This document shows, one piece after another, positions 17,134 through 31,308 of a stretch of 36,504 nucleotides of DNA. The notes below the pieces were generated by a model. That model did not search any database. It saw only the letters and a list, made by a program, of their open reading frames with translations, and was not told where the DNA came from. Numbering within the stretch: position 1 is the stretch's first letter; each line of letters begins with the position of its first letter. The DNA lies in contig JAEMTW010000001.1 in NCBI GenBank assembly GCA_016462095.1, forward strand, positions 6,536 through 43,039, in the 5' to 3' direction. Both the position numbers and the translations under genes were made by a program. This DNA comes from Thermoleophilia bacterium (GTDB lineage: Bacteria; Actinomycetota; Thermoleophilia; Gaiellales; F1-60-MAGs149).

Positions 17134-18684
17134 TCAGAGTGTGCCGGCGCTGATCGCCTCTGCGACCGTTGCGGCCCGAGCGCGAATCTGTGCCTGCTCT
17201 TCGGCAGAGAATCGCTCCCAACCCCGGGCGGCCTGCGCGGTGCGTGGGTTGGCGGCCAGGCGCGCATGGTGGCGAGCGGTGAAATCCCAGTAGAGCGTGG
17301 TGAAGGGACAGGCCTTGTCGCCGGTGCGTTGGCGCGGATCAAAGCGGCAGCCGCTGCAGTGCCCGGTCATGCGCTTGAGGTAGGCGCCACCGGCCGCATA
17401 GGGTTTCGTCGCCATCAGACCACCATCTGCGTGCAGGCTCATGCCGGTGACGTTCGCTTGCATCACCCAGTCGTAGCCGTCGGCGAAGCGCTCGCGAAAC
17501 CACGCATTGGCGGCCTGTGGCTCGGTACCGAGCAGGAGCATCAGGTTGCCAGCGATCATCAGACGATCGATGTGATGCGCCCACGCGTAGCGCTCAACAA
17601 TGTCGGCGACGTGTTGGACGCACGCGAGATCAGTGGTCGCCGCGCCTGTCAGGGCCGGGGGCACGGGGGCGTGTGCATCGAGCTCGTTGAGGGCTGCGTA
17701 GCCCGGCATCTCGCGCCAGTAGACGCCGTTGACGTACTCGCGCCAGCCGAGGATCTGCCGGATGAAGCCCTCAACAGAGGCCAGCGGGGCAGTGCCGGCA
17801 CGGTAGGCAGCCTCGGCCGCGGCAATGCATTCGCGTGGCTCGAGCAGACCGATGTTGAGGAGGGGCGAAAGCGTCGAGTGCCGCAGCCATGGGTCGTCAG
17901 GGTCACTGACATCTTCGAACGGACCGAAGCCCGCGAGACGTTGCTCGACAAAATCTGTCAGCCACCTGAGGCTCTCTGCGCGCGTGGTGGGGAGCCAGAA
18001 GTCCTCGGCTCGACCAGGCAGGCCCGGAGCGTGTCGATCGATGTCGGCCTGGACGGCTGCGAGCACTTCGTCGTTGTGATCAATTGGCGGAGGCGGGGTC
18101 GGCCGCGCGCGCTCGTCGCTGCGACGCCAGGCGGCGAAGGTCTCGCGGTTGTCGTGATCGAACGACCACTTGCCACCACACGGCTCACCGTCGTCCAGCA
18201 GCACGTCGTGCTCTCGGCGCATCCACGCATAAAAGTCCTGCATCCGCAGCCGGCGTCGCGCCCCTGCCCAGTCGGCAAACTGCTCGCGCCCACAGAGAAA
18301 GTGCGAGTCGAGAGTGGTCTGGATCGGGCAGCCGATCGCCTCAGCGAGCCGAGGAAGGTTGGCCTGTGCCTGCCACCCGGGTAGCTCCATCACGAGCACC
18401 TCGGAGGCAGCATGGCTGGTCACCGCGCGCTTGAGGGCCTCGGCGAATCCGACCTCGAGCTCGAGACGAAACTCGTCGACCTGCCAGCCGTCGGCGCGTA
18501 GCTGCTCGGCGAAGCGTCGCATGGCTGTCACTACGAGCGTGACCTTGTGGCGATGCAGGCGTCCGCGAAGGACCTGCGGCAGCGACTCGATCAGCACGAC
18601 GCGATCGTGGTCACGATCGGCGGCGGCGAGGGCGCTGTTGCGCAGTGATAGCTGCGTGCCTTGGATCCAAACGAGGCGAGTCAT
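17134..18684 (-). CDS. Fe-S cluster-containing cryptochrome/photolyase family protein (FeS-BCP; PhrB/CryB-type (6-4) photolyase)
   Basis: Photolyase-related fold with a C-terminal Cys set spaced C-x87-C-x2-C-x12-C (TDLACVQH ... HCSGCRFDPRQRTGDKACPFTTLYWDF). This equals the spacing of the four [4Fe-4S] ligands I recall for Agrobacterium PhrB (C350/C438/C441/C454). I place the start at the ATG at 18684, overlapping the fpg/nei stop as ATGA. The track start at 18777 is inside the upstream gene. Confidence 0.85.
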   Translation of the reverse strand: MTRLVWIQGTQLSLRNSALAAADRDHDRVVLIESLPQVLRGRLHRHKVTLVVTAMRRFAEQLRADGWQVDEFRLELEVGFAEALKRAVTSHAASEVLVMELPGWQAQANLPRLAEAIGCPIQTTLDSHFLCGREQFADWAGARRRLRMQDFYAWMRREHDVLLDDGEPCGGKWSFDHDNRETFAAWRRSDERARPTPPPPIDHNDEVLAAVQADIDRHAPGLPGRAEDFWLPTTRAESLRWLTDFVEQRLAGFGPFEDVSDPDDPWLRHSTLSPLLNIGLLEPRECIAAAEAAYRAGTAPLASVEGFIRQILGWREYVNGVYWREMPGYAALNELDAHAPVPPALTGAATTDLACVQHVADIVERYAWAHHIDRLMIAGNLMLLLGTEPQAANAWFRERFADGYDWVMQANVTGMSLHADGGLMATKPYAAGGAYLKRMTGHCSGCRFDPRQRTGDKACPFTTLYWDFTARHHARLAANPRTAQAARGWERFSAEEQAQIRARAATVAEAISAGTL

Positions 18685-19445
18685 GAGGTCTCCATGATGA
18701 CCTGCTCGTTGGGACACCAGTACGTCGTGCGTCCGCCGACGGTGGCGCGCTCGAGTTCGCAGCTGCAACGTGGGCACTGGCCGCCGCGTCGAGCCCGCGC
18801 GAAGCGGCCTCGACCCGAGCCACCCTTTGGTGTCAGAGCTTCGCGCAGGGCGAGCCGCAGAGACGACCGCAACTGATTGAGAGCGTCTGTCGACAGCGTC
18901 CCCGCGGGCTGTCGGGGATTAATCATCGCGTCGAACAACGCCTCGTCGGCGAGCAGGTTGCCCACACCGGCGAGTACCGCCTGATCGAGCAGGCGCGCTT
19001 TGATCGGTGCACGGCCCGCACCGACCCGCTTACGGAAGGCTGCGGGAGTAATCGTCAAGGCGTCGGGTCCGAGCTTGTCGATGCCGGCGCCGAGGTGCGC
19101 GCGCGACAACCGCCGCTTGTCGCGGAGAGCGACGCGCGACCCGTCGTCAAAGACGATCGTGATGCGGTCCCAGTTGCGTGGTGAGGGCTTCGGTGCACTG
19201 CGAATCGATCCGCCCATGCCGAGATGCAGTCCCAGCTCGTGTCCACTGTTGGTTTCGAGCCAGAGAAATTTGCCGTGGCGTCCTGCCGCGATCACGATTG
19301 ATCCGCTCAGCGCGCTATTAAGCTCGCCCGGTTCGTGTGGTCGGCAGACCCATTCGTCGTCATCCTCGACGTGAACAATGCGCAGCCCGACGCAGAGGCG
19401 CTCCAGCGTCCGGCGGGCCTTTTCGGCTTCAGGCAATTCCGGCAT
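18681..19445 (-). CDS. Fpg/Nei-family DNA glycosylase/AP lyase (formamidopyrimidine/endonuclease VIII type)
   Basis: Hallmark N-terminus MPELPEAE (catalytic Pro2/Glu3). H2TH region. C-terminal zinc finger (CPRCSCELERATVGGRTTYWCPNEQ). Confidence 0.9.
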   Translation of the reverse strand: MPELPEAEKARRTLERLCVGLRIVHVEDDDEWVCRPHEPGELNSALSGSIVIAAGRHGKFLWLETNSGHELGLHLGMGGSIRSAPKPSPRNWDRITIVFDDGSRVALRDKRRLSRAHLGAGIDKLGPDALTITPAAFRKRVGAGRAPIKARLLDQAVLAGVGNLLADEALFDAMINPRQPAGTLSTDALNQLRSSLRLALREALTPKGGSGRGRFARARRGGQCPRCSCELERATVGGRTTYWCPNEQVIMETS

Positions 19446-19505
19446 ACACGACCCTTCGCGCTGCGTCTTGCTGCGGCGCGAGGGCGGCAGCGTTTCGCAA
19501 CGACA

Positions 19506-19539
19506 GGCGACATTCTGGGCCCGGGCCCAAAATGTCGCC
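19506..19539. promoter_or_regulatory. 34-bp near-perfect palindrome (17+17, one mismatch) in the divergent fpg / flavoprotein promoter region; candidate operator
   Basis: The sequence is GGCGACATTCTGGGCCC|GGGCCCAAAATGTCGCC. The half-sites differ only at C19515/A19530. The centre is the perfect 12-mer GGGCCCGGGCCC. It lies 60 nt from the fpg ATG and 46 nt from the ATG at 19586. There is no flanking T-tract and no convergent gene, so it is not a terminator. Confidence 0.55.
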
Positions 19540-19585
19540 TCTCCTCATATCGCATCAAAGACAAACCCATGGCAAACTCGTGCCT

Positions 19586-20833
19586 ATGGCTGACGTGATT
19601 GTGATTGGAGCGGGCCTCTCGGGTCTGCGTTGCGCTGGCCTCTTGGCCGAGCGTGGCCTTGAAGTCGTAGTCGTCGAGGCGTCCGATGGTGTTGGTGGAC
19701 GTGTCCGCACGGATGCGGTCGATGGCTTCTTGCTCGACCGCGGCTTTCAGGTGCTGTTTGAGGGCTATCCGGAGGCACAGCGAGCGCTCGATCTCGAGGC
19801 GCTCGATCTGCGGGCCTTCCTGCCGGGTGCGGACATCTGGTGGGACGGGCGCATGCGCACGATCGGCCATCCGCTGCGCGACCCGCGCTCACTGCCCGAT
19901 GCATTGCGTGCTGGTCTCGGCAAGCCTCGCGACATTCGAGCAGCCGCCAAGTGGTTGCGCGAGGCGCGTCCGCTGGCCACCGCGACGGCGCCCGAGACGA
20001 CTGCCGACGAGCGACTGCGATCGCTGGGCTTCTCGGACGATGTTCGCGAGCATCTCTTGCGCCCGCTCTACGCCGGTGTGTTTCTCGAGCGAGAGCTCGG
20101 TGTCTCGAGCCGTCTCTTGGATCAGGTCTTCTTGCAGATGGCGGCGGGTCGCACAGTCGTGCCTGCCCGGGGCATGGGAGCCATTTCTGAGCAGCTGGCA
20201 GCACGACTACCCGCGGGTGCAATTCGTCTCAACGAACGGGTTGCAAAAGTTGGCAAGCGCAGCGTGACGCTCGCTTCGGGCGAAAAATTACGTGCGGAGA
20301 TCGCGGTTGTGATTGCCGCCGGCACCGACGCTACCTGCACGTTGGCGGGCGTCGAAGCACCTGCGCCCCGAGGCTCGACGTGCCTCTGGTTCGACGCGCC
20401 CGAGGCACCTGCAGGGCGCCGCATCGTGCTCGATGGCGATGGGGTTGGCCCGGTCAACAATGTCGCCGTGATGAGCGCGGTTGCACCGGCGTACGCTCCG
20501 TCCGGCCGTTCATTGGTCGCGGCATCCTGTGTTGGCATGCCGTTTACAGGCGACGATGCGGCTCTCGAATCGGCCGCGTATGCACAGCTTGCAGGTTGGT
20601 TTGGAGGCGACGTTGAGACGTGGCGCCTCTTGCGAACCGATCGCATTGAATGGGCTCAACACGCCCAGCCGCCTGGTTCGCTGAGCACCGGTGCGCATTG
20701 GTTGCGAGATTCCGTCGTGGTGTCGGGCGACGGTACCGAGAATGCTTCGATCGATGGCGCGTTGCGCGCGGGGCGTCGGTCCGCGGATCTCGTGCTCGCT
20801 GGTGTGGTCGCGCAACAGTCTGCGGTGTCGTGA
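19586..20833 (+). CDS. NAD(P)/FAD-dependent oxidoreductase, amine-oxidase / phytoene-desaturase-like family
   Basis: N-terminal dinucleotide fold (MADVIVIGAGLSGLRCAGLLAERGLEVVVVEASDGVGGRV) and a C-terminal FAD-binding block (VVVSGDGTENASIDGALRAGRR). The ATG at 19586 is in frame with track ORF 19337. The upstream part is Arg/Ala-rich and crosses the promoter. Confidence 0.85.
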   Translation: MADVIVIGAGLSGLRCAGLLAERGLEVVVVEASDGVGGRVRTDAVDGFLLDRGFQVLFEGYPEAQRALDLEALDLRAFLPGADIWWDGRMRTIGHPLRDPRSLPDALRAGLGKPRDIRAAAKWLREARPLATATAPETTADERLRSLGFSDDVREHLLRPLYAGVFLERELGVSSRLLDQVFLQMAAGRTVVPARGMGAISEQLAARLPAGAIRLNERVAKVGKRSVTLASGEKLRAEIAVVIAAGTDATCTLAGVEAPAPRGSTCLWFDAPEAPAGRRIVLDGDGVGPVNNVAVMSAVAPAYAPSGRSLVAASCVGMPFTGDDAALESAAYAQLAGWFGGDVETWRLLRTDRIEWAQHAQPPGSLSTGAHWLRDSVVVSGDGTENASIDGALRAGRRSADLVLAGVVAQQSAVS

Positions 20834-21981
20834 TGAAGGTTGTCGTCGTCGGTCTCGGGGCAATGGGCTTGCCGACCGCGCGAGTGCTGGCAGAGCGTGG
20901 CCACGACGTGATCGGCATCGATCGGCACGGCATCTCCGCACCCGCTGGCTCGTCGGCGGGCGAGACCCGCAGCTTTCGTCTCGCCCACGATCGTCCCGAA
21001 GACATCCGCCTCGCACGCCGTGCGCTCGAATTGTGGCGCGAGCTAGAGCAGCTGAGTGGTGAGCAGCTGATCGATCAAGTCGGCCTGATCCTCCGCGGAG
21101 AACCAGTACCGGCTTGGGTGACTGCGATGCGCGACGAGGGGCTCGCCGTTGAGGAACTCGATGCGGCCGGCGTTGAGCGCGTCTTCCCCGAGTTGGCGTT
21201 TCGCCCAGACGAGCCTGCAGTCTTGGTCCCTGCCGATGGAGTCGTCTTTGCGCGACGCGGTCTGGCAGCAATCGCTGCCGCAGCACGCGCGGCCGGCGCC
21301 GAGCTGGCGATGCCCGAACGGATGCTGGAGATCACCGAGACGCCAGCGGGTGTGCGCGTCACGACGGATCTGCGCGTGATCGAGGCCGATGCGGCAGTCA
21401 TCGCCGCCGGGCCATGGGCGGAGGAGTTGCTGCCACCGCTCGGCTTTAGCCTCCCGCTCGTCCCAGCGATTGGGCAGGTCTCGTACTGGCGTGGAGGGGG
21501 CACCTGGGAGCGCCGCCCGTCGCTGGTCGATTTTCAGGAAGACGGCAAGATGGGCGTCTACGGTCTGCCGACGCCGGGCAAGGGCTACAAGATTGGTCTC
21601 GATTATGGCGACGAGGCCGCCTGGTTTTCTGATGCCACCGAGTGGGAGCGTCGCGAATTTGAGGAGGAGTGCAACGGCGAGTGGGTTGCAACGCATGCGC
21701 CCGGCCTCGTCACGGATGGCCCGTACATGACCGAGGCCTGCCCGTGGACGATGACTCCGGATGCGGATTACACGTACGGTCGGCGTGGGGCGATCGTGGT
21801 CGCAGCGGGCTGCTGTGGACATGCCATGAAGTTCACGCCCGTGCTCGGCGAGATCCTTGCCGACTTGACGGAAGGCCGAGAGTTGTGGCCGGACGCCAAG
21901 GCTTTCGCACTCGAGCGGATCCCCGCCGAGATGCCGTTCACGCGCTACGACACGCCGATGGGTTCGCGCATCTCGCTCTGA
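20833..21981 (+). CDS. FAD-dependent oxidoreductase of the monomeric sarcosine oxidase / N-methyl-amino-acid oxidase (SolA/MSOX, DAO) type
   Basis: MKVVVVGLGAMGLPTARVLAERGHDVIGIDRH (GxGxxG), and near the C-terminus VVAAGCCGHAMKFTPVLGE, which resembles the MSOX ..SGHGFKF.. block. The ATG at 20833 overlaps the upstream TGA as TGATG. Confidence 0.8.
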   Translation: MKVVVVGLGAMGLPTARVLAERGHDVIGIDRHGISAPAGSSAGETRSFRLAHDRPEDIRLARRALELWRELEQLSGEQLIDQVGLILRGEPVPAWVTAMRDEGLAVEELDAAGVERVFPELAFRPDEPAVLVPADGVVFARRGLAAIAAAARAAGAELAMPERMLEITETPAGVRVTTDLRVIEADAAVIAAGPWAEELLPPLGFSLPLVPAIGQVSYWRGGGTWERRPSLVDFQEDGKMGVYGLPTPGKGYKIGLDYGDEAAWFSDATEWERREFEEECNGEWVATHAPGLVTDGPYMTEACPWTMTPDADYTYGRRGAIVVAAGCCGHAMKFTPVLGEILADLTEGRELWPDAKAFALERIPAEMPFTRYDTPMGSRISL

Positions 21982-22048
21982 CGATAATCGTCGGTGTTGG
22001 ATGACGGTGGCACGGATGTCTTGTCGTCGGCTGGCGAAATCCACCACA

Positions 22049-22708
22049 ATGCACGGCATGGAACGCTTTGCCGAACTCGCGCAGACCGATGCGCCGCACC
22101 TCGACGTGCTGGCGCTTGCGATTGCGAGTGAGCTACGCGAGGTCGACAGCGAGGCCGCGCTCGCCGAGCTCGACCGGTTGGCCGGCGAGGTCGTGCGTCA
22201 TGGCTTGGGGGAGACGCCCTACGAACAGCTCGACGCGCTGGCGGCCGTGCTTGGGCGGCACGAGGGCTTCGCAGGTGACGTCGAGGAGTACGACCATCCC
22301 AACAACTCGATGCTGGACCTCGTCCTGCAGCGTCGGCGAGGTCTGCCGATCCTACTCAGCGTCGTCTGGATTGAGGTGGGGCGACGGCTCGGACTACCCC
22401 TGCGTGGAGTTGGCCTGCCGGGTCATTTCGTGGCTGCGTACTTTGGCGAAGGCGATCCGATCCTGATTGACCCGTTCAAGAGTGGCGTGCGCATGCCCGA
22501 TATTCCCACTGGCGTGACTGTCGAATCGACCTCGACGCACCAGACCGCCCTCCGCATCCTCTCGAACCTCGTTGGCTCGTATGAGCGTCGGGGCGATGTT
22601 GGGCGGACGCTGATTGCTGCCAGAATGCGCCTTGATCTGCCGTTAGACGAGCGCGATCGCCGGGTCATGGAGTTTGATCACAAGCGCGTCTCTGCGCGTA
22701 TGAACTAG
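22049..22708 (+). CDS. SirB1/YchA-type transglutaminase-like protein (UPF0162)
   Basis: Core block RRGLPILLSVVWIEVGRRLGLPLRGVGLPGHFV matches my recollection of the family signature. The start is ATG 22049 or 22058. Confidence 0.65.
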   Translation: MHGMERFAELAQTDAPHLDVLALAIASELREVDSEAALAELDRLAGEVVRHGLGETPYEQLDALAAVLGRHEGFAGDVEEYDHPNNSMLDLVLQRRRGLPILLSVVWIEVGRRLGLPLRGVGLPGHFVAAYFGEGDPILIDPFKSGVRMPDIPTGVTVESTSTHQTALRILSNLVGSYERRGDVGRTLIAARMRLDLPLDERDRRVMEFDHKRVSARMN

Positions 22709-22751
22709 TCGGACATTCCCCCGACCCGCCGCGAACGATTAGGATCTCTCC

Positions 22752-24749
22752 ATGCATTCCTCCTACGCCCTCAACTCCGAGGATTTCGCTGTCGTTCGTG
22801 ATGGCGCGTCCGCTCCACTTGCGAGCCTCTGGCCCGGTGGTTACAAGAACGGTGATCGCTTCTGCGTGCTGATGGGAACTCCGATGGATGCGGTTGGGTG
22901 CTCGAATCTGATTGGTGGCACGAACACGCTGTTTTACGATCATCTGCGCGAGACGCGCGGCACGTCGAACTTCTTCCGCTACGCCGACACGTACATGATT
23001 GGTGTCGATTGCGAGCCCGGCGATTGGAACCAGCTCGACGTCTGGCCGATGCACAAGTTCGTCAGCATCATGTCGCCGACGGCCGAGTCGCTGATCCACA
23101 CGATCAACGATCGTCGGATTACGCATCTGGCGATTCCCGAGACGGGCATTCGCGTGCGTGGACCGGTCGTGTTGTCGACGTGGAACTCGTTCCTCGACAC
23201 CGTCAAGTGCATCGTGCTCTACAACCCGTTGACGGGCAAGGCGCGCGAAGCCGACGTCGGACTGCTTGGCAATAAGGTGATCGAGTCGTACGTCGAGCAG
23301 GCGATCTTCTCGACGCCGGGTATCGGCGCCGGTGCGCAGGCGCGCTATCGCCGCATTCGCCGCAATCTCGATCAAGAGCCGATGCGTTGCCTCGAGGAGT
23401 ACCGCACGCTGGCGAATCCCGCCGCGGCGCGCGCACTGCTTGGCGTCTCCGAGGTCTTGCCACCCGGCCACCAGCCGCCCGACCTGCGGCAGGCACCGAT
23501 CGTGATCATTCCCGTCGACAGCCCGATTGCCGCAGCCGACCAGGAGAGTTCGCCGCCGATTAATGCCGCTGGCATCACCGTCGTCGAGCCTCCCGCGCCA
23601 TTGCCGTCGACCGAGGGTCTTCGCAAGACGGCATTCGACGGCATCTTGCGTCGCTCTGGCGGCAACTTTGCGGAGTGGGAGGGCTGGTCGTGGATCTCCG
23701 ACTTCGGCGATCCCCTCAACGAGCATCACGCTGTTCGCGAGACCGTTGGTATCTGGGACGAGTCGCCGCTGCAGAAGTGGATCTTCCGTGGCCCCGACGC
23801 ACTCAAGGCTGTCGACTACTGCTTTGCCAATGACATGGCTTCGATGCAGGTTGGTCAGGCGCGCTACTCCTGCTTCCTCGACGAGCACGGCCGGATGCTT
23901 GGTGACGGTGTCGCCTTCAATACGGGTGATCCGGAAAAGGCGGGCATTCTCGTCGTGACGGCACTGCCGAGCGATGTCGACCAGTTCCGCCGCGTCTTGA
24001 AGCAGCAGGGCTTTGACGTTGAGGTGCTCGATCGCACGGAGGAATGGCCGCACATTCAGGTGCAGGGTCCCAAGGCGCGCGATCTGGTCGATTCGATGAC
24101 CGACTTCGATGTCGCCAGCCTCAAGTACTTCCGCTTTACCGCGGAGCCAATCACGATCGCCGGTATTGATGGCTGCTACCTGGCCCGCACCGGTTACTCG
24201 GGCGAGCTCGGCTACGAGATCTACGTGCCGAAGGGTGCCGCCGAGGCGCTCTGGCAGGCACTGCTCGACCATGGCGCCTCGCTGGGTATTCGCCCGTACG
24301 GCCTCGCCGCTGTCGAGTCGTTGCGCATCGAGTCGGGCCTGATCTTCCTCGGCTATGACTACTTCCCTGGCCTGACGTCGCCGTTCCATATGAATTTGGA
24401 GCGCACGATCAACTTGGAGACGGGCGACTTCGAGGGCAAGCAGGCGCTCGTCAACGAGTTGGCTGGTGGCATTACACATCGCCTCACGACCCTCGTGGTC
24501 GCGGGCAACGAGGCGCCGGATTATGGCGCTGATGTGTTCGTCAATGGTCGTGGTGTGGGCAAACTGCTGTCGCCGTCGGATGGTCGCTCGCCAAGCATTG
24601 ATCGTCTGATCGGCATCGCATGCCTCGAGGCCGACTTGGCCGAGCCGGGCAACCGCGTCGAGGTGGCGTTGCCGGATGGTCGTCTCGTGCCGGCCTACAC
24701 CGATACGTTCCCAATTTATGACCCCGAAAAGAAGAGGCCGCGATCATGA
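22752..24749 (+). CDS. Fusion protein: unrecognised N-terminal domain of about 270 aa, a Pro-rich linker, then an aminomethyltransferase (GcvT/DmdA-family, folate-binding) domain
   Basis: The ATG at 22752 has AGGA 8 nt upstream. The C-terminal 373 aa are GcvT-like (IWDESPLQKWIFRGPDALKAVDYCFANDM, ARTGYSGELGYEIYVP, PYGLAAVESLRIESG). The N-terminal part has normal globular composition (W, Y, C, H, N, K) but no motif I can name. The linker is PPGHQPPDLRQAPIVIIPVDSPIAAADQESSPPINAAGITVVEPPAPLPS. Confidence 0.85.
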   Translation: MHSSYALNSEDFAVVRDGASAPLASLWPGGYKNGDRFCVLMGTPMDAVGCSNLIGGTNTLFYDHLRETRGTSNFFRYADTYMIGVDCEPGDWNQLDVWPMHKFVSIMSPTAESLIHTINDRRITHLAIPETGIRVRGPVVLSTWNSFLDTVKCIVLYNPLTGKAREADVGLLGNKVIESYVEQAIFSTPGIGAGAQARYRRIRRNLDQEPMRCLEEYRTLANPAAARALLGVSEVLPPGHQPPDLRQAPIVIIPVDSPIAAADQESSPPINAAGITVVEPPAPLPSTEGLRKTAFDGILRRSGGNFAEWEGWSWISDFGDPLNEHHAVRETVGIWDESPLQKWIFRGPDALKAVDYCFANDMASMQVGQARYSCFLDEHGRMLGDGVAFNTGDPEKAGILVVTALPSDVDQFRRVLKQQGFDVEVLDRTEEWPHIQVQGPKARDLVDSMTDFDVASLKYFRFTAEPITIAGIDGCYLARTGYSGELGYEIYVPKGAAEALWQALLDHGASLGIRPYGLAAVESLRIESGLIFLGYDYFPGLTSPFHMNLERTINLETGDFEGKQALVNELAGGITHRLTTLVVAGNEAPDYGADVFVNGRGVGKLLSPSDGRSPSIDRLIGIACLEADLAEPGNRVEVALPDGRLVPAYTDTFPIYDPEKKRPRS

Positions 24750-25912
24750 CCGAACAGACAGACGCAGCAGGCTCTGAGGGCCTTCGCTTGACGGCATTTG
24801 ACGCGATTCAGCGTCGCCAGGGTGGCAATTTTGCGGAGTGGGAAGGCTGGGACTGGATCTCGGACTTCGGTGATCCGCTCGCTGAGCATCACGCTGTTCG
24901 TACTGCGGTTGCCATCTGGGACGAGTCGCCGCTTCAGAAGTGGATTTTTCGCGGCAACGATGCCACCAAGGCTGTCGATTACTGCTTTGCTAATGATATG
25001 TCCGCGTTGGCCGTTGGCCAGGCGCGTTATTCGTGCTTCCTTGACGAGAACGGTCGCATGCTTGGTGATGGCGTTGTCTTTAATACGGGCGATGACGCCG
25101 GTGCCGGCATCCTCGTCGTAACCGCGCTACCGACCGATGTCGACCATTTTCGCCGCGTCTCCGAGCAGCAGGGTTTTGACGTTGAGGTGCTCGACCGGAC
25201 GGAGAAGTGGCCGCACGTGCAGGTGCAGGGGCCGAAATCGCGCGATCTCGTCAATGCGCTGACCGACTTCGATGTCGACTCACTGAAGTACTTCCGCTTC
25301 ACGACGGAGTCGATCACGATCGCTGGCATCGAGGGTTGCTACCTGGCGCGCGCCGGCTATTCGGGCGAGCTCGGCTATGAGATCTATGTCCCGAAGGCCA
25401 GTGCCGAGGCGCTGTGGGAGGCACTGCTGGCAGCGGGCGCGGCGCATGGCATCCTCCCGTACGGTCTTGCTGCTGTCGAGTCGCTGCGCATCGAGTCGGG
25501 TCTGATCTTCATTGGTTACGACTACTTCCCGGGTGAGACCTCGCCGTTCCACATGAATCTGGATCGGACGATCAGTCTGGATACGGGCGACTTCCTCGGT
25601 AAACAGGCACTTGTGGACGAGTTGGCGGCGGGCGTCACCCATCGCCTCACGACGCTGGTCGTCGCGGGCGAGGAGGCGCCGGACTACGGTGCTGAGGTCT
25701 TCGTTGACGGGCGTAATGTTGGCACGCTGCTGTCGCCGTCCGCGGGGAGTTCGCCGAGTGTCGATCTCGTGATTGGCATGGCATGCATCGAGGCAGACCT
25801 CGTCGCATCCGGTACTCGTGTTCAGGTTGCACTCCCTGACTCAAGCCTCGCCGAAGCCACGACCGATGCGTACCCGATCTACGACTCGGAGAAAAAGCGA
25901 CCACGGTCGTGA
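23613..25912 (+). repeat. Tandem direct duplication of a roughly 1.14-kb GcvT-family coding unit (23613-24749 and 24776-25912; period 1163 bp)
   Basis: The two copies align without gaps at a constant offset of 1163 nt from GAGGG..CTTCGC to the stop codons. The proteins align without gaps over 373 aa, with 42 of the first 50 aligned residues identical. Both end in ...KKRPRS*. Confidence 0.9.
24746..25912 (+). CDS. Aminomethyltransferase-family (GcvT/DmdA-like, folate-dependent) protein, stand-alone paralog
   Basis: Same motifs as the C-terminal part of the upstream gene. The ATG at 24746 overlaps the upstream TGA as ATGA, with GAAGAGG 8 nt upstream. Confidence 0.9.
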   Translation: MTEQTDAAGSEGLRLTAFDAIQRRQGGNFAEWEGWDWISDFGDPLAEHHAVRTAVAIWDESPLQKWIFRGNDATKAVDYCFANDMSALAVGQARYSCFLDENGRMLGDGVVFNTGDDAGAGILVVTALPTDVDHFRRVSEQQGFDVEVLDRTEKWPHVQVQGPKSRDLVNALTDFDVDSLKYFRFTTESITIAGIEGCYLARAGYSGELGYEIYVPKASAEALWEALLAAGAAHGILPYGLAAVESLRIESGLIFIGYDYFPGETSPFHMNLDRTISLDTGDFLGKQALVDELAAGVTHRLTTLVVAGEEAPDYGAEVFVDGRNVGTLLSPSAGSSPSVDLVIGMACIEADLVASGTRVQVALPDSSLAEATTDAYPIYDSEKKRPRS

Positions 25913-26673
25913 CCTTGGTCAGGGCCTGGAGCGTCGACTCGGCTGGACCAATCGGAGTCGTCGCAGAGGGCTGGGAGGGGGTGCGTGGAGCAGAGCTCTT
26001 GCGCGCCCAGTTGCCGAAGGAGGATCTGGTCGTGGTCGCCGACCACGCCTTTGCGCCGTACGCGAAACGGCGGCCCGATCAGATCGTGCAGCGGGTGCAG
26101 GACCTCGCCGTGGGTCTCCTTGACGAGGGCGCTAAGGCGTTGCTTCTCGCGAGCGGCTTTGCCTCGTTCGAGGCGCGCCCCGAAACTGAGGGCATCACTC
26201 TACGTGGCCTCGAGTGTGGCCTGCGCGCGGCACTTGCCGAGGCCCAGGGGCGTCCCGTCGTAGCGGTCTTCTCATCGGCCGAGGTCAAGCCGATGGTGCT
26301 CGCCAAGACGATTCGTACGCTGCGCGGTGGAGGCAGCGTGACGCTGATCGAGCGTGGCGAAGATACCGTCACCGAACTGCTTGCTCGCCTGCGCGGCCAT
26401 GCGCCTGAGGTCGCAGTGCTCCTGCTCTTGACGCCGAGCGCCTACGCCGACACCGAAGCGGTGCGCGCAGAGGCCGGCACCCTCGTCGTGATCGACGCTC
26501 TCGAGGCGGCCACCGACTTTTTGATCCACGACATTCGACGGCACCAACTGCTTGCCCACCACGGCGAGCGTTCGGGTCGCATTACGGCCTACGCCACGCG
26601 GGGTGGCACGACGGGCAGCTCGCGTGAGCCACTCTCAACGGCGTCGGTGGCAGCACTCCAGCGGCGCAGATAG
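25909..26673 (+). CDS. Glutamate-racemase (MurI / Asp-Glu racemase)-like protein with substituted catalytic motifs
   Basis: Collinear by eye with MurI: IGVVAEGWEG (MurI: IGVFDSGVGG), VVVADHAFAPYA (GDxxxxPYG), KALLLASGFAS (ACN[ST]AS, catalytic Cys), VLLLLTPSAY (GCTHYP, second Cys). The GTG at 25909 overlaps the GcvT stop as GTGA. G/C-rich third positions support coding. Confidence 0.6.
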   Translation: MTLVRAWSVDSAGPIGVVAEGWEGVRGAELLRAQLPKEDLVVVADHAFAPYAKRRPDQIVQRVQDLAVGLLDEGAKALLLASGFASFEARPETEGITLRGLECGLRAALAEAQGRPVVAVFSSAEVKPMVLAKTIRTLRGGGSVTLIERGEDTVTELLARLRGHAPEVAVLLLLTPSAYADTEAVRAEAGTLVVIDALEAATDFLIHDIRRHQLLAHHGERSGRITAYATRGGTTGSSREPLSTASVAALQRRR

Positions 26674-26717
26674 TTAGTTTTGAGACTTATTTTCTCACTA
26701 TAATGTAGTATTTGGGT
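26674..26717 (+). promoter_or_regulatory. Strongly A/T-rich intergenic promoter region with an exact TATAAT (26699-26704)
   Basis: The sequence tagttagttttgagacttattttctcacTATAATgtagtatttgggt ATG stands out from the GC-rich flanks. TATAAT ends 13 nt before the ATG at 26718, so the leader would be very short. -35 candidates: TTGAGA (26680-85) has only a 13-nt spacer, and TTAGTT/TAGTTT give 18-19 nt. The imperfect inverted repeat ACTAtaatgTAGT overlaps the -10. Confidence 0.5.
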
Positions 26718-27431
26718 ATGAATACCGCTGCCCGCGACACTGCACTCCACGCGCTGGTCTCCGTGGAGCGCCTGCTTCGGCGCGCCGATCCCGCTGCGGT
26801 GCCCGATCTGCTCCAGGTGCGTGCCGCCTTCGAGTCGACGGCAGGTCGCACGGTCACCCGCGGTCGTGCCGCGCGTTTACTTGCACTCACGCAGACGAGT
26901 GTCGATCGGTGGATTGTCGATGGAGCGATTCCAACCGTGATCGACGTCGATGGGCGCACGATGGTGCCGACGCGCGAACTCATACGGTTACGCGTGGAGA
27001 TGGATGAGGAGCGCCGCCGCGGCATCCAGCGACCGCTCGGTATCGTCGTGCGGCGGCGGCGAGCGGTGGCCTCCGCACTACCGATCGCGGAACTTCTGCC
27101 CGTGGCGTCGGAGTCGGATCGAGGACATCGGCAAGCCGAGATTGCCGACTTGGCGGTGCATCGTCTGATTGGGCGTGGGCTGACTCCGCTCCAGATTGCG
27201 ATCGCGCGCTGGCAACTTGAGCAGGCTCATGAGAGTGGTCGTCTTCACCCATCGTGGTATGCGGCATGGCAATCGGTGTTCGATGCCGGCGCCGATCGGG
27301 TCCGCGAGGTTCTGACAGAGGATTCACCTGCTGCGGCGTCGCTCCGGCAGACGTCGCCCTTCAAGGGGCAATTGGGGCATGAAGACCGGCGGCGATTGTT
27401 CGCGGTACTCCACGAGGATGTGACTGCGTGA
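26718..27431 (+). CDS. HTH (excisionase/MerR-like HTH_17-type) DNA-binding protein with an unrecognised C-terminal domain of about 140 aa; putative antitoxin/regulator
   Basis: VTRGRAARLLALTQTSVDRWIVDGAIPTVIDVDGRTMVPTRELIRL fits the excisionase-type HTH pattern (..LLGVS..TV.RWI..G.LP.....GR..I....L..). The gene has many A/T-ending and rare codons (tta, ata, gga, cca). Its stop overlaps the next start (GTGA). Confidence 0.65.
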   Translation: MNTAARDTALHALVSVERLLRRADPAAVPDLLQVRAAFESTAGRTVTRGRAARLLALTQTSVDRWIVDGAIPTVIDVDGRTMVPTRELIRLRVEMDEERRRGIQRPLGIVVRRRRAVASALPIAELLPVASESDRGHRQAEIADLAVHRLIGRGLTPLQIAIARWQLEQAHESGRLHPSWYAAWQSVFDAGADRVREVLTEDSPAAASLRQTSPFKGQLGHEDRRRLFAVLHEDVTA

Positions 27432-27961
27432 AACGCGCCGAATTTGAGCATGTCATTCGTGCTGCTGTTGCCATTGTTCACGACGAGTTGATCGTCGTCG
27501 GGAGTCAGGCAATTCTTGCGAGATACCCAGATGCGCCAAGCGATCTTTTGGTATCGGACGAGCTTGATATGTATCCACGAACGCACCCCGAACGGGCGAT
27601 CGACCTTGATGCGCTGATCGGTGCGGGATCACAGTTCGAGGAGACGTTCGGCTACCGAGCGCATGGCGTCGCACCAGAGACGAGCACGCTTCCTGAGGGA
27701 TGGGAGCAGCGATTGGTACGGGTTGAAGTGGAAAGTATCGATGGTGGTATGGCCGTGGCATGGGCTCTTGAACCACACGATCTTGTCCTCGCAAAACTTG
27801 CGGCGGGACGCCAGCAGGACTACGACTTCGCGGTTGGAGCCCTACGTGCGAATCTCGTCGAACGTTTGGAACTGGTGCGTCGTTGCGAGGGGCTCGGGAT
27901 TGCCATTCGCAATGACGTGCGTCGCCGTGTTGAGGGGGTGACGGTGCGCGCTGGCAGCTAG
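27428..27961 (+). CDS. Minimal nucleotidyltransferase-fold protein (DUF6036-like / MNT-AbiEii-like); putative toxin or effector
   Basis: Pol-beta NTase-type signature: LIVVGSQAIL (hG[GS]) followed by VSDELDMY ([DE]hDh). Small size (177 aa). Third positions are clearly less G/C-biased than in the neighbours. It is translationally coupled to the HTH gene. Confidence 0.6.
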   Translation: MKRAEFEHVIRAAVAIVHDELIVVGSQAILARYPDAPSDLLVSDELDMYPRTHPERAIDLDALIGAGSQFEETFGYRAHGVAPETSTLPEGWEQRLVRVEVESIDGGMAVAWALEPHDLVLAKLAAGRQQDYDFAVGALRANLVERLELVRRCEGLGIAIRNDVRRRVEGVTVRAGS

Positions 27962-28782
27962 GACGCGAGTCCTAGCCCGGTCACCGCAATCAGCGTCACC
28001 GCAATACCGATGTACTGGTTGACAAATAGCCGCTCGCGCATGCCGAAAATCCCAATCAACGCAGCGGCCGTGCCCCACTGGGTGGCGGTGACCGACGCGA
28101 CCGACAGCGGACCAATCGAGGCGGCGAAGGCGAAGCAAACGAAGCCAACGGCGTCGAGCAGTCCACACCAGATAATCGGGTACACGTTGACGCGGCTCGG
28201 TAGCTGACGGACGAGGAGAAAAGCCGGCAAGATCACGAGCACGCTCGTTGCTCGTGTGATGCCAACCGTAGTCAGGTCGGGCAGCTCGGATTGGCCGAGC
28301 GCGATCAGGACGCCGGCATAGGCAACGGCCGCCAGGATCGCTTCGGGGGCACCGGCCGCAGTGCGGCGTCCCGGCTCCAACGCGACAAGCACAGCACCGA
28401 TTACCGCCACGACAATCAACGCGTACATCAGCATGGATGGGCGCTCGCCGAGCGCGATCGAGAAGATCGTTGCGACGCCGCCTTCCAACGCGATGATGGG
28501 GGCGATCACGCTCAGGCTGCCCTTGCGCAAGGCACGCAGGAGCAGAAAGAACCCAACATCAGCGAGCACACCGGCGGCGACAGGCCAGGCGAGGGCCTCG
28601 ATGGTCCAGGGGCCCTCAAGGTGGTCGACGATCAGGGCGAGCGGTAACACCGCAGCCGTCGTCACGATCAGCACCCAGAACATGATCACCGCCGGCTTGG
28701 TCTTGGTGCGGGTGACCTGCTGGGTGAAGACGTTTGCAAACGCCCAGGCGAACGCAGTTACAAGTCCGAAGAGTACGGTCAC
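27958..28782 (-). CDS. EamA/DMT-superfamily transporter (paralog 1)
   Basis: About ten hydrophobic helices in two EamA-like halves (e.g. LSVIAPIIALEGGVATIFSIALGERPS; VASVTATQWGTAAALIGIFGMRERL). It starts 1 nt after the stop of paralog 2. Confidence 0.85.
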   Translation of the reverse strand: MTVLFGLVTAFAWAFANVFTQQVTRTKTKPAVIMFWVLIVTTAAVLPLALIVDHLEGPWTIEALAWPVAAGVLADVGFFLLLRALRKGSLSVIAPIIALEGGVATIFSIALGERPSMLMYALIVVAVIGAVLVALEPGRRTAAGAPEAILAAVAYAGVLIALGQSELPDLTTVGITRATSVLVILPAFLLVRQLPSRVNVYPIIWCGLLDAVGFVCFAFAASIGPLSVASVTATQWGTAAALIGIFGMRERLFVNQYIGIAVTLIAVTGLGLAS

Positions 28783-28783
28783 G

Positions 28784-29605
28784 CTAGATCAGCAATCCAA
28801 GGCCCGTGACCGCGAGCATCGTGACGGCGATCCCAACGTATTGGTTGATGTGCAATCGCTCGCGTAGAAAGAAGATGCCGATCAGTGCTGCTGCCGAGGC
28901 CCATTGGGCCGACGTGACGGAGGCCACAGTCAACGGCCCAAGCGAGGCGGCGATGGCGAAGGCTGCGAAGCCAACCGCGTCGAGCGTGCCAGCGGCGAGG
29001 AGCGGTTTGATGGCCGGGCGTGGCGGCAGTTGACGCACCATCAGAAACAAGGGAATCGCAGTCAGGAGGCTCGCGACGCGCGCAATCCCAGCCGAGGTCA
29101 TTGCCGGTTGCTCCGTGTGCCCCATGGCCACGAGCATGACTGCGTAGACGAATGCTGCAAGCACGGCCCAACCGGCACCCTTCGCCGTCCGTCGCCCTGG
29201 TTCGATTGAGACGAGCACGGCACCAACGGCGGCAAGCGCGAGTAGCGCGATCGTCGCGGGCGAGGGGCGCTCACCAAGCACGACCGCGACGGCTGCCGCG
29301 AGTCCACCCTCGATTGCGATGATCGGCGCCACGACGCTGATGCTGCCGACCTTCATCGCCTTCACCATCAGCAAAAAGCCGATGTTGCCTGCGATGCCGG
29401 CCAGCGCGGGGGGACCGAGCGCTTGAAGGTTGAACGGACCCTGTAAGCCATCGACGATCAACGCAACCGGGACGACCACGCACGTGCTGATCAACACGAT
29501 CACGACGAGCATCAAGCGGAGATCCACGAGTCGGGACGACTTTTGGACGAAGACGCTCGCGAACGCCCACGTGAACGCTGCCGACAGTCCGAGTAGGACT
29601 GTCAC
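28784..29605 (-). CDS. EamA/DMT-superfamily transporter (paralog 2)
   Basis: Collinear with paralog 1 (MTVLLGLSAAFTWAFASVF vs MTVLFGLVTAFAWAFANVF; ISVVAPIIAIEGGLAAAVAVVLGERPS). Roughly half the residues are identical by eye. It starts 9 nt after the MttB-family stop. Confidence 0.85.
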   Translation of the reverse strand: MTVLLGLSAAFTWAFASVFVQKSSRLVDLRLMLVVIVLISTCVVVPVALIVDGLQGPFNLQALGPPALAGIAGNIGFLLMVKAMKVGSISVVAPIIAIEGGLAAAVAVVLGERPSPATIALLALAAVGAVLVSIEPGRRTAKGAGWAVLAAFVYAVMLVAMGHTEQPAMTSAGIARVASLLTAIPLFLMVRQLPPRPAIKPLLAAGTLDAVGFAAFAIAASLGPLTVASVTSAQWASAAALIGIFFLRERLHINQYVGIAVTMLAVTGLGLLI

Positions 29606-29614
29606 TGGGTCAAC

Positions 29615-31060
29615 CTAGTCACCCAGTTCGATGCGACGACGATCGGTGTAGGCCTTCAGCTCGGCGTGCAGATCGGGGTCGAGCTCGGGTGCCTCCCACG
29701 ATTCCTGCAGCTCATCCCACTTGGCGAGTGCGCGCTTCGTCGCGTCGGGTCGCTCCTTCTTCGTCCAGGCCGAATAGTTATCGGTCGTCCAGACTTCGGG
29801 GCGATAGAAGCAGTCGCGGAACCGCTCGAGGGTATGAGCGGCGCCGAAGAAGTGGCCGCCGTGGCCGACTTCCTCGTGGGCTCCGAAGGCGAGCGTGTCG
29901 TCACTAAATTCGACGGGAGTGAACTGCGCGATCATCTGGCGCAGCATCTCCGTGTCCATCGCGACCTTCGAGAAGGAGTGGACGAGTCCGCCCTCGAGCC
30001 AGCCCGTGCAGTGCAACTGGAGGTTGGCACCAGCGAGGAACGACGGCAACATCGTGTTGAGCGATTCGAAGGCCGACTGGCCATCGACGGCGGGGCTCGC
30101 ATTGAGGCCGCCACCGCCGGCGCGCCAGAGGACGTTGTGGCGGCGTGCGATCTGGCCCGTGGCGAGGATGCCCAAGGCGGCCTCGGGACCACCGAAGCCA
30201 GGCGAGCCGGACTTCATATCCGTGTTCGAAACGAAGGAACCCATAATCGCGGGGCAGCCAGGGCGGATCGCCTGCACGAGCGCGATGCCTGCCAGCGACT
30301 CGGCGGTCTGCTGAGCGAGGGCGGCCGGCAGTGAGACGGGACCCATCGCGCCCATCAGGATGAAGGGTGTGATGTTGACGATCTGGTTGCGCTCGGCCAA
30401 CAGCCAGAGCGACTCCAGCATGCGCGTATCGAAGACGAGTGGCGAGTTGGCGTTGATCGTGCCGAAGACGCCGGGGTTCTGCTCGAGCACGTCGAAGCCA
30501 CCAAGCGCGAGCTGGGCCATCGCGATCGAGTCGATCACGCCGTTGACGTGGATCTGTGCGGCGCCAACTGCGAGGTCGGTGTTCTCGTACATGGCGAGCT
30601 GCAGGTCGAGGTGGCGCGAGTCGAGGGGCTTGTCATTGCACTCGATAATCGGGTAGCCCGGGGTATCGATCTCGGGCGTCATCTGGGCAGCACGCAGCAA
30701 CTTGACGGCGTCGGCGAGCGTGCCGTCGCGACGTGGCGTTACGCCGTCATCAACGAACGGCATTGACTGGCCGGTACAGAAGACCATGTTGTCCTTGCCA
30801 AACTGGACGTTCTTCTCGGGGTTGCGCGACAGGAGGGTGAACTCGGTCGGCGTCGTCTTGATGCGCTCCAGCAGCCAATCCGGATCGAAGAAGACGACTT
30901 CGCCCTCAACCCGTTGGCCCTCACGCTTGAACAGCTCGAGCGACGGCTCGTGCATAAACGTGATGCCGAGCTCGGAGACAAGGCGCTTCCAGCCGCGGTC
31001 GATGGTATCGAGCGCGTCTTCCGAGAGTGGTTCAAAGCGTGGAGTGCGATTGACGAACAC
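29615..31060 (-). CDS. MttB-superfamily (trimethylamine methyltransferase family) protein, non-pyrrolysine member
   Basis: Family-typical N-terminus (RFEPLSEDALDTIDRGWKRLVSELGI.F) and TIM-barrel core (NANSPLVFD, MGAMGPVSLPAALAQQTAESLAGIAL, GGLNASP). There is no in-frame TAG. I place the start at GTG 31060, with SD GGAAGGA 6 nt upstream. The track start at 31240 adds 60 Arg/Gly/Ser-rich residues. Confidence 0.85.
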   Translation of the reverse strand: MFVNRTPRFEPLSEDALDTIDRGWKRLVSELGITFMHEPSLELFKREGQRVEGEVVFFDPDWLLERIKTTPTEFTLLSRNPEKNVQFGKDNMVFCTGQSMPFVDDGVTPRRDGTLADAVKLLRAAQMTPEIDTPGYPIIECNDKPLDSRHLDLQLAMYENTDLAVGAAQIHVNGVIDSIAMAQLALGGFDVLEQNPGVFGTINANSPLVFDTRMLESLWLLAERNQIVNITPFILMGAMGPVSLPAALAQQTAESLAGIALVQAIRPGCPAIMGSFVSNTDMKSGSPGFGGPEAALGILATGQIARRHNVLWRAGGGGLNASPAVDGQSAFESLNTMLPSFLAGANLQLHCTGWLEGGLVHSFSKVAMDTEMLRQMIAQFTPVEFSDDTLAFGAHEEVGHGGHFFGAAHTLERFRDCFYRPEVWTTDNYSAWTKKERPDATKRALAKWDELQESWEAPELDPDLHAELKAYTDRRRIELGD

Positions 31061-31308
31061 GTGAGGTCCTTCCCTAGTCCCGTAAATATGGCAGGCGGCG
31101 GGCTTGAGCGCGCTCCGCACCCAACCCGAGCGAGGCAGAGAGACACCTCCTGATTCAGCAACTACTCGGCGCGATCCGTCTGTCGACTTAGCGTCGTCAC
31201 GATGGGCGCCCGCATGGAATCCAGTTCGGCGTAGTGTCACCGCCCCGCGCGAGGGTCTTGTGCATTGTCTTCACGAGCCGCTAGACTGCGCCGCCCGCTG
31301 CTAACCGA

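Follow-up and report, generated by a model that had tools for sequence, protein, structure and literature searches.

Candidate modules for folate-linked amine oxidation and MttB-dependent demethylation converge in a Gaiellales genome that encodes a corrinoid methyltransferase set on another contig

In this work, we describe a convergent gene cluster from the actinobacterial order Gaiellales, in which a + strand arm encoding two flavoproteins, a transglutaminase-like protein, a GcvT-type folate-binding protein fused to an N-terminal domain of no recognized family (hereafter the N-domain), a second GcvT-type protein and a racemase-like protein faces a - strand arm encoding two EamA transporters and a non-pyrrolysine methyltransferase of the MttB superfamily (Table 1). 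The cluster lies within a stretch of 36,504 nucleotides (nt), the window, located at the end of the longest contig (G000:C76:6536-43039) of a metagenome-assembled genome (MAG) of 2.0 Mb in 323 contigs, 85% complete and with ~64% G+C. Relatives of the same genus are mostly of freshwater-lake origin, and the host is probably an aerobic freshwater actinobacterium. We hold with moderate confidence that the two arms are separable modules placed tail to tail: module A, dedicated to folate-linked amine oxidation, and module B, in which MttB and the EamA permeases would use a corrinoid set supplied in trans from contig C140 of this MAG.

In module A, the two flavoproteins (one amine-oxidase-like, one MSOX-like) would oxidise an N-methyl or primary amine, and the fused protein would take the reactive one-carbon (C1) or imine product through its N-domain and load tetrahydrofolate (THF) in its GcvT domain, the outcome being 5,10-methylene-THF in place of free formaldehyde. 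A precedent for this arrangement is DmmD, a GcvT-type helper of an N-demethylase, the dimethylamine monooxygenase (PMC5520151). In module B, the divergent MttB would demethylate a quaternary amine carried by the co-operonic EamA permeases and hand the methyl group to the single MtgC-type corrinoid protein of the genome; a pterin-binding methyltransferase would then move the methyl group to THF, and RamA would reactivate the corrinoid, these two proteins being encoded on C140 as well.

For gene identification, the open reading frames (ORFs) of the window were scanned with Pfam and NCBIfam, and for neighbourhood comparison the window proteins were placed by tblastn on 47 related loci. A previous reading of the window made from its letters alone (the sequence-only reading) had listed the genes of both arms, and the scans confirmed every one of them at the position given. 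It had also reported no corrinoid protein, RamA-like activase or betaine importer in the window, in agreement with the lack of B12-binding, RACo, BCCT and OpuAC domains among the scanned window ORFs. Two features were absent from it: a pair of genes between the arms, comprising a helix-turn-helix (HTH)-like gene and a DUF6036 nucleotidyltransferase gene, and the status of the second GcvT as a variable duplicate.

Conservation of the two arms

Gene order is kept among the loci of the genus (N-domain 87-98% identical): fpg is followed by the amine-oxidase-like, MSOX-like, transglutaminase-like and fused GcvT genes, in some loci the second GcvT, and the racemase-like gene, which converge on one or two EamA genes and MttB, with kup and lysR beyond them. 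In these same loci, synteny extends equally to fpg, kup and lysR, unrelated genes on the flanks, and since such neighbours keep their order too, the genus-wide layout could result from plain descent. In a sister lineage represented by two loci, L013 and L014 (76-78% identity), the transglutaminase-like, fused GcvT and racemase-like genes also converge on EamA and MttB, and the surrounding synteny is kept as well (ROK, binding protein, Castor, MFS and DUF179). When compared with positions 17134-21981 of the window, L013 lacks a photolyase-related gene, fpg and the two oxidase genes as one block, which indicates that both oxidases were gained or lost together with DNA-repair genes.

Beyond the genus, ~30 loci spread over three families (60-68% identity) retain just the pairing of the fused GcvT with the racemase-like gene; in none of them is an MttB, EamA, amine-oxidase-like, MSOX-like or transglutaminase-like gene found at a distance of up to 8-12 kb from the fused gene. 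When the neighbours in 28 loci were grouped by a crude all-against-all comparison, the racemase-like gene was likewise the only conserved one. The amine-oxidase-like gene is found 5' of the fused GcvT within the genus only, and the Transglut_core2 gene adjoins the fused GcvT only in the genus and the L013 lineage. Judged by gene order, the conserved core across the order is the fused GcvT with the racemase-like protein, and the oxidases were added in the genus. Regarding the opposite arm, orthologues of the window MttB at 83-99% identity were found in the genus only; the nearest matches from other genera, at 55-57% identity, lack EamA, GcvT and corrinoid neighbours, as well as any MSOX-like neighbour other than a weak, 27% identical DAO-like match ~4 kb from the copy in L147. 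The gap between the two EamA genes is of 1 nt and that between the second EamA gene and MttB of 9 nt, and because of these short distances the three genes are probably one operon.

These patterns bear on the strongest alternative, namely that both arms constitute one integrated pathway in which MttB takes the first methyl group off a betaine-like compound imported by EamA, and the oxidases and GcvT proteins process the rest. The chemistry of such a pathway is coherent, every genus locus of sufficient length displays the convergent layout, as do L013 and L014, and mtg genes adjoin other betaine-catabolic genes in marine bacteria, according to a published account (PMC12478193). We nevertheless consider it unlikely, although less so than the alternatives discussed below. 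The adjacency of the arms may be simple descent, given that DUF179, MFS and Castor are as syntenic as fpg, kup and lysR; L013 keeps the convergent layout and has neither oxidase; the nearest MttB relatives in other genera, apart from the L147 match, stand without EamA, MSOX-like or GcvT neighbours; and the ~30 fused-GcvT loci outside the genus have no MttB nearby. Furthermore, the later steps could be performed from elsewhere in the genome, where ~11 GCV_T-domain matches include two DAO+GCV_T fusion proteins on contig C291, and contig C214 carries a SoxA-like gene together with its DAO partner. As these conventional dimethylglycine/sarcosine enzymes lie apart from the locus, there is less need for the window oxidases to finish a betaine pathway begun by MttB. 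A functional link between the arms would be chemically plausible, the comparative data in its favour being limited to synteny at the genus level. From the stepwise demethylation route put forward by the sequence-only reading, a + strand unit for oxidative N-demethylation with THF capture is retained as plausible, while a single route spanning both strands is not borne out; the two strands are not conserved as a unit either, as the arms occur together only in the genus and one sister lineage, where their flanks are equally syntenic.

The + strand proteins and the N-domain

The start codon of the MSOX-like gene overlaps the stop codon of the amine-oxidase-like gene (TGATG, read directly in the sequence). 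Sarcosine oxidase 7exs is the best solved relative of the MSOX-like protein (131 bits, full-length alignment), which scores 214 bits with NF008425 (cut-off 257) and 164 bits with TIGR01377 (cut-off 480). Concerning the amine-oxidase-like protein, the FAD motif alone aligns with solved amine or putrescine oxidases. The GcvT domain of the fused protein has its best solved matches in Tdm 9q5a (156 bits) and GcvT 1yx2 (154 bits), and the second GcvT is 79% identical to this C-terminal part, as a tandem copy. The equivalog cut-offs for GcvT were reached by neither of them (TIGR00528, 170/183 bits against 235.85; NF001567, 225/236 bits against 300); by these scores, the two are members of the GCV_T domain family and not GcvT proper.

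The N-domain is the only unusual part of the cluster. It is highly conserved over its 245 residues, with motifs MHSS, FFRYAD, QLDVWPxHK, NDRRIT and ESYVEQAIF. The N-terminal 299 amino acids (aa) of the fused protein gave no Pfam match even at E <= 1, a profile search of PDB sequences with the N-domain returned chance matches only, and ten stand-alone relatives belong to no Pfam or NCBIfam family. Within the order, it is present in 101 of the 201 sampled genomes, almost always once and fused to GcvT; elsewhere in the phylum it is rare (4/400 sampled genomes). Among 1.84 billion representative proteins, searched with a profile, 390 N-domain clusters were identified, most of them stand-alone proteins of 220-280 aa. 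An AlphaFold2 (AF2) prediction from 26 close relatives reached a pLDDT of 37, and 52 diverse sequences gave a confident model, which displays an alpha/beta fold (pLDDT 91.4, pTM 0.89); in the fused protein, pLDDT drops below 55 beyond residue 240, in the linker region. The best Foldseek match of this model was 1uan, an LmbE/PIG-L deacetylase, and it was a weak one (E 1.4e-3, TM 0.37-0.41, root-mean-square deviation 7.3); the residues at the LmbE/PIG-L zinc-motif loop are not conserved across the N-domain family, as assessed by eye in the alignment.

From the ~390 clusters, 12 distinct gene contexts were read, and in seven of them N-domain relatives adjoin amine or imino-acid oxidising enzymes. 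In three loci of the same genus (L136-L138; L136:4127-6483), a 225-aa N-domain paralogue, devoid of the cysteines conserved in the fused form, is translationally coupled 3' of a copper amine oxidase that carries NYDY, the motif with the tyrosine from which topaquinone is formed in enzymes of this type. In sister genera, the fused gene has a copper amine oxidase gene on its strand, 1.5-4 kb to the 5' side (13 locus entries, several of which are the same place duplicated). The stand-alone N-domain proteins of Bacillus methanolicus PB1 (locus tag PB1_03815) and Bacillus sp. 1NLA3E are each encoded in an operon with HODM_asu-like and DmmA-like genes and ammonium transporters. Other relatives follow ETF, an Fe-S CCG protein and an Oxidored_FMN/Pyr_redox_2 enzyme, a DgcAB-like set, in Niallia; a Rieske protein and its reductase, near OpuAC, in Caballeronia; and ornithine cyclodeaminase, proline dehydrogenase and aldehyde dehydrogenase in Pseudalkalibacillus. 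Finally, two unrelated actinobacteria (L157 and L159) harbour clusters that look like sarcosine/creatine catabolic loci, one with SHMT beside a GcvT, MSOX-like, N-domain and amidohydrolase series, the other with the N-domain, an OpuA-type ABC transporter, an MSOX-like protein and creatinase; in one context, the three parts of the window (MSOX-like, GcvT and N-domain) are present as separate genes.

Taken together with the GcvT fusion, these contexts support a role for the N-domain in transferring to folate the C1 product that amine oxidation yields. A broader proposal, which we put forward tentatively and regard as possible but doubtful, is that the N-domain constitutes a widespread new partner of oxidative amine N-dealkylation, accepting an imine or carbinolamine from Cu, FAD, haem-PAS and FMN/Fe-S enzymes, or docking to them, and delivering the C1 unit to folate. 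If this were true, the Gaiellales fusion would serve as a Rosetta stone for a component still missing from the picture of methylated-amine catabolism.

It could also be that the + strand genes are unrelated to methylated amines, the fused protein being a self-contained enzyme for another substrate and the flavoproteins its unrelated neighbours. The oxidases are indeed genus-specific and come and go with fpg and the photolyase-related gene relative to L013, the fused gene has different neighbours in different parts of the order, and five of the 12 N-domain contexts are uninformative. Against this, five classes of amine/imino-acid oxidising enzyme recur beside N-domain relatives in unrelated phyla, and the fusion to GcvT points to a C1 unit destined for folate; we consider this alternative improbable.

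A corrinoid set on another contig

The window MttB is encoded by an unbroken ORF (29615-31240, - strand) without in-frame stop or amber codon, and its match to the solved MtgB structures (2qne/9yce, 330 bits) is far above that to pyrrolysine-dependent MttB (83 bits). From these matches, the protein belongs to the non-pyrrolysine MttB clade. The genome encodes five MttB paralogues, with 39-55% mutual identity, and three B12-binding matches. One of the latter is an MtgC-type corrinoid protein on C140, where the pterin-binding methyltransferase, a RamA/RACo activase and a further MttB paralogue are also encoded; by its domain content, C140 carries a canonical three-component methyltransferase system and its activase. 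The two other B12-binding matches resemble, by eye, a methylmalonyl-CoA-mutase-type domain and a MerR/CarH-type regulator, and were discarded as methyltransferase corrinoid proteins on account of these mutase- and regulator-like sequences. The reported lack of a corrinoid protein consequently holds for the window and fails for the genome.

The C140-type corrinoid protein is single-copy and was recovered from 19 of the 26 genomes of the genus (91-99% identity), including 4/4 of the high-quality ones, and on this basis contamination of the bin was rejected as the origin of the C140 set. In the 17 of these 19 genomes that have a listed position for each gene, the corrinoid gene and the window-type MttB are found on different contigs. 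A corrinoid set just outside the window was likewise rejected: the window reaches the contig end on one side, and two large-contig relatives (G072 and G011) have the corrinoid gene and this cluster on separate contigs. With a full set on C140, and its corrinoid protein in most genomes of the genus, the suggestion that the MttB homologue may lack a corrinoid partner, or do without it, is not supported.

An orphan MttB served in trans is already known biology. In the aerobe Ruegeria pomeroyi, the MtgB paralogues, MtgC, MtgD, MetF2 and RamA are encoded at scattered, separate loci (PMC12478193), and in Eubacterium limosum several MttB paralogues share one corrinoid protein (PMC8604678). An MttB independent of any corrinoid protein, such as one that transfers the methyl group directly to THF or to free cobalamin, would fit the lack of a corrinoid gene in the window and in every related locus around the cluster, but is highly improbable, since the genome has the canonical trio of corrinoid protein, methyltransferase and activase, kept in the genus, and the characterised non-pyrrolysine MttB members, as described in both sources (PMC8604678, PMC12478193), all use a corrinoid protein, which several paralogues can share.

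In comparison with the window MttB, the C140 MttB paralogue is closer to the solved MtgB (398 bits), and the window MttB may thus take a different quaternary amine. In the 85%-complete MAG, neither CobS nor CobD was found and the TP_methylase matches numbered only two, which suggests that cobalamin is scavenged, although this completeness cannot prove absence.

Several points weigh against reading the arms as an amine-oxidising module and an MttB module supplied in trans. The window MttB most likely uses the C140 corrinoid set, but the MttB neighbour encoded on C140 itself could be its user instead. Cobalamin would have to come from outside the cell, as the cobalamin genes recovered suggest. 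On the + strand, the amine-oxidase-like protein may act on something other than amines; the weak LmbE/PIG-L fold match, together with a zinc motif that is not conserved, leaves no chemistry assignable to the N-domain; and five of its 12 contexts contain no amine enzyme.

Remaining features and known systems

The coordinates of all features are collected in Table 1. The second GcvT gene occurs in 3/17 genus loci (the window, L017 and L021). The racemase-like protein was rejected as glutamate racemase MurI: its NF002035 score is far below the cut-off of 328 bits and covers the N-terminal half only, and the two catalytic cysteines are not conserved, as a search of the alignment of six orthologues for a conserved cysteine found none. 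In L010 (7043-9895), L015 (12632-15337) and sister-genus loci, several other genera in all, the pair formed by the fused GcvT and the racemase-like gene adjoins a protein of 900-977 aa in which APH kinase, Peptidase_M23 and class-III aminotransferase domains are joined. Between the arms, the HTH and DUF6036 pair is complete in the window, L022 and L024, represented by the HTH gene only in L018, and absent from the remaining genus loci. By this distribution it is a variable insert outside the pathway, and it behaves as a mobile toxin-antitoxin-type insert between convergent operons.

Table 1. Features of the convergent cluster (window coordinates) and of the corrinoid set on contig C140.
Feature	Location	Strand	Basis
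Flavin amine-oxidase-superfamily protein, 415 aa	19586..20833	+	PF01593 (Amino_oxidase), 124 bits, full length
MSOX/SolA/NikD-family flavoprotein, 382 aa	20833..21981	+	PF01266 (DAO), 138 bits
Transglutaminase-like (Transglut_core2, SirB1-like) protein	22049..22708	+	PF13369, 121 bits
Fused GcvT, 665 aa	22752..24749	+	First ~290 aa without family; last 375 aa GCV_T + GCV_T_C
N-domain, aa 1-245 of fused GcvT	22752..23486	+	No Pfam/NCBIfam family; AF2 model
Pro/Ala-rich linker, aa 246-290 of fused GcvT	23487..23621	+	Variable, gapped alignment columns
GcvT-type folate-binding domain of fused protein	23622..24749	+	PF01571, 204 bits, and PF08669
Stand-alone GcvT paralogue (ATGA overlap with fused GcvT)	24746..25912	+	PF01571, 213 bits
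Cys-less Asp/Glu-racemase-like protein, translationally coupled (GTGA)	25909..26673	+	NF002035, 36 bits
HTH-like and DUF6036 nucleotidyltransferase pair	26712..27961	+	PF19502, 38.5 bits
EamA (DMT-superfamily) transporter 1	27958..28782	-	PF00892, two repeats
EamA transporter 2	28784..29605	-	PF00892, two repeats
Non-pyrrolysine MttB-superfamily methyltransferase	29615..31060	-	PF06253, 505 bits, profile positions 23-500
MtgC-type corrinoid protein, 223 aa	C140:3132-3803		PF02607 (B12-binding_2) and PF02310 (B12-binding), GDVHDIG motif (DxHxxG)
Pterin-binding methyltransferase	C140:960-1877		Pterin_bind, 90 bits
RamA/RACo activase, cut by contig end	C140:1-1056		Fer2 + RACo_linker + Raco_middle
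MTHFR paralogue, IclR regulator, divergently transcribed MttB paralogue, then GntR regulator	C140:1-6107 region		

Among the major sources of carbon and nitrogen in lakes, soils and oceans are methylated amines and betaines. Five MttB proteins and ~11 GCV_T-domain matches in a 2-Mb MAG from a small-genome freshwater Gaiellales genus suggest heavy use of methyl groups, by a methyl-group specialist that scavenges cobalamin. The trans-encoded corrinoid set removes the apparent anomaly of an orphan MttB, and extends to uncultured Actinobacteria the scattered MtgBCD layout of marine Alphaproteobacteria. In addition, the presence of the N-domain in the cultivable Bacillus methanolicus, in a Dmm/HODM-like operon, makes its role genetically testable.

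Among known systems, module B resembles the MtgB/MtgC/MtgD(A) system of Desulfitobacterium hafniense and its aerobic form in Ruegeria pomeroyi, as presented in PMC12478193: here too, a non-pyrrolysine MttB, an MtgC-type protein, a pterin methyltransferase, a MetF paralogue and RamA are found, and, as in Ruegeria, the genes of the MttB paralogues lie apart from that of the corrinoid protein. Unlike that system, the window MttB is less MtgB-like than the C140 paralogue, and its partners are EamA permeases instead of a BCCT or ABC importer. Several MttB proteins with one corrinoid protein and one downstream methyltransferase are likewise known from the MtcB, MtpB and MtyB proteins of E. limosum, which share MtqC and MtqA (PMC8604678); that organism, however, is an anaerobic acetogen with far more MttB paralogues than the five of this probably aerobic freshwater actinobacterium.

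Regarding module A, the fused protein shares with Tdm, the trimethylamine N-oxide (TMAO) demethylase made of a DUF1989 core and a C-terminal GcvT domain, an architecture in which a non-folate N-terminal domain precedes GcvT, and its best solved match for the GcvT part is Tdm itself. It was rejected as a Tdm, since its NF053776 score of 227 bits falls short of the cut-off of 1100 and the alignment covers profile positions 386-762 only, in the GcvT part; unlike in Tdm, its N-domain is not DUF1989. DmmD of DmmDABC is similarly a GcvT-type folate-binding protein that accompanies an N-demethylase and is proposed to limit formaldehyde toxicity (PMC5520151). In contrast to that system, the window contains no DmmABC, its oxidases are flavoproteins, and the fused protein has an extra N-domain absent from DmmD as described (PMC5520151). 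Lastly, in SoxBDAG and dimethylglycine oxidase an MSOX-like flavoprotein and a GcvT-type folate domain send C1 units to THF, as would occur here; the N-domain has no sequence match to SoxA chains in the PDB and no fold match to them among its top 50 Foldseek matches, and no SoxD or SoxG was recognised in the window, where, unlike in those enzymes, the corresponding parts are encoded as separate genes.

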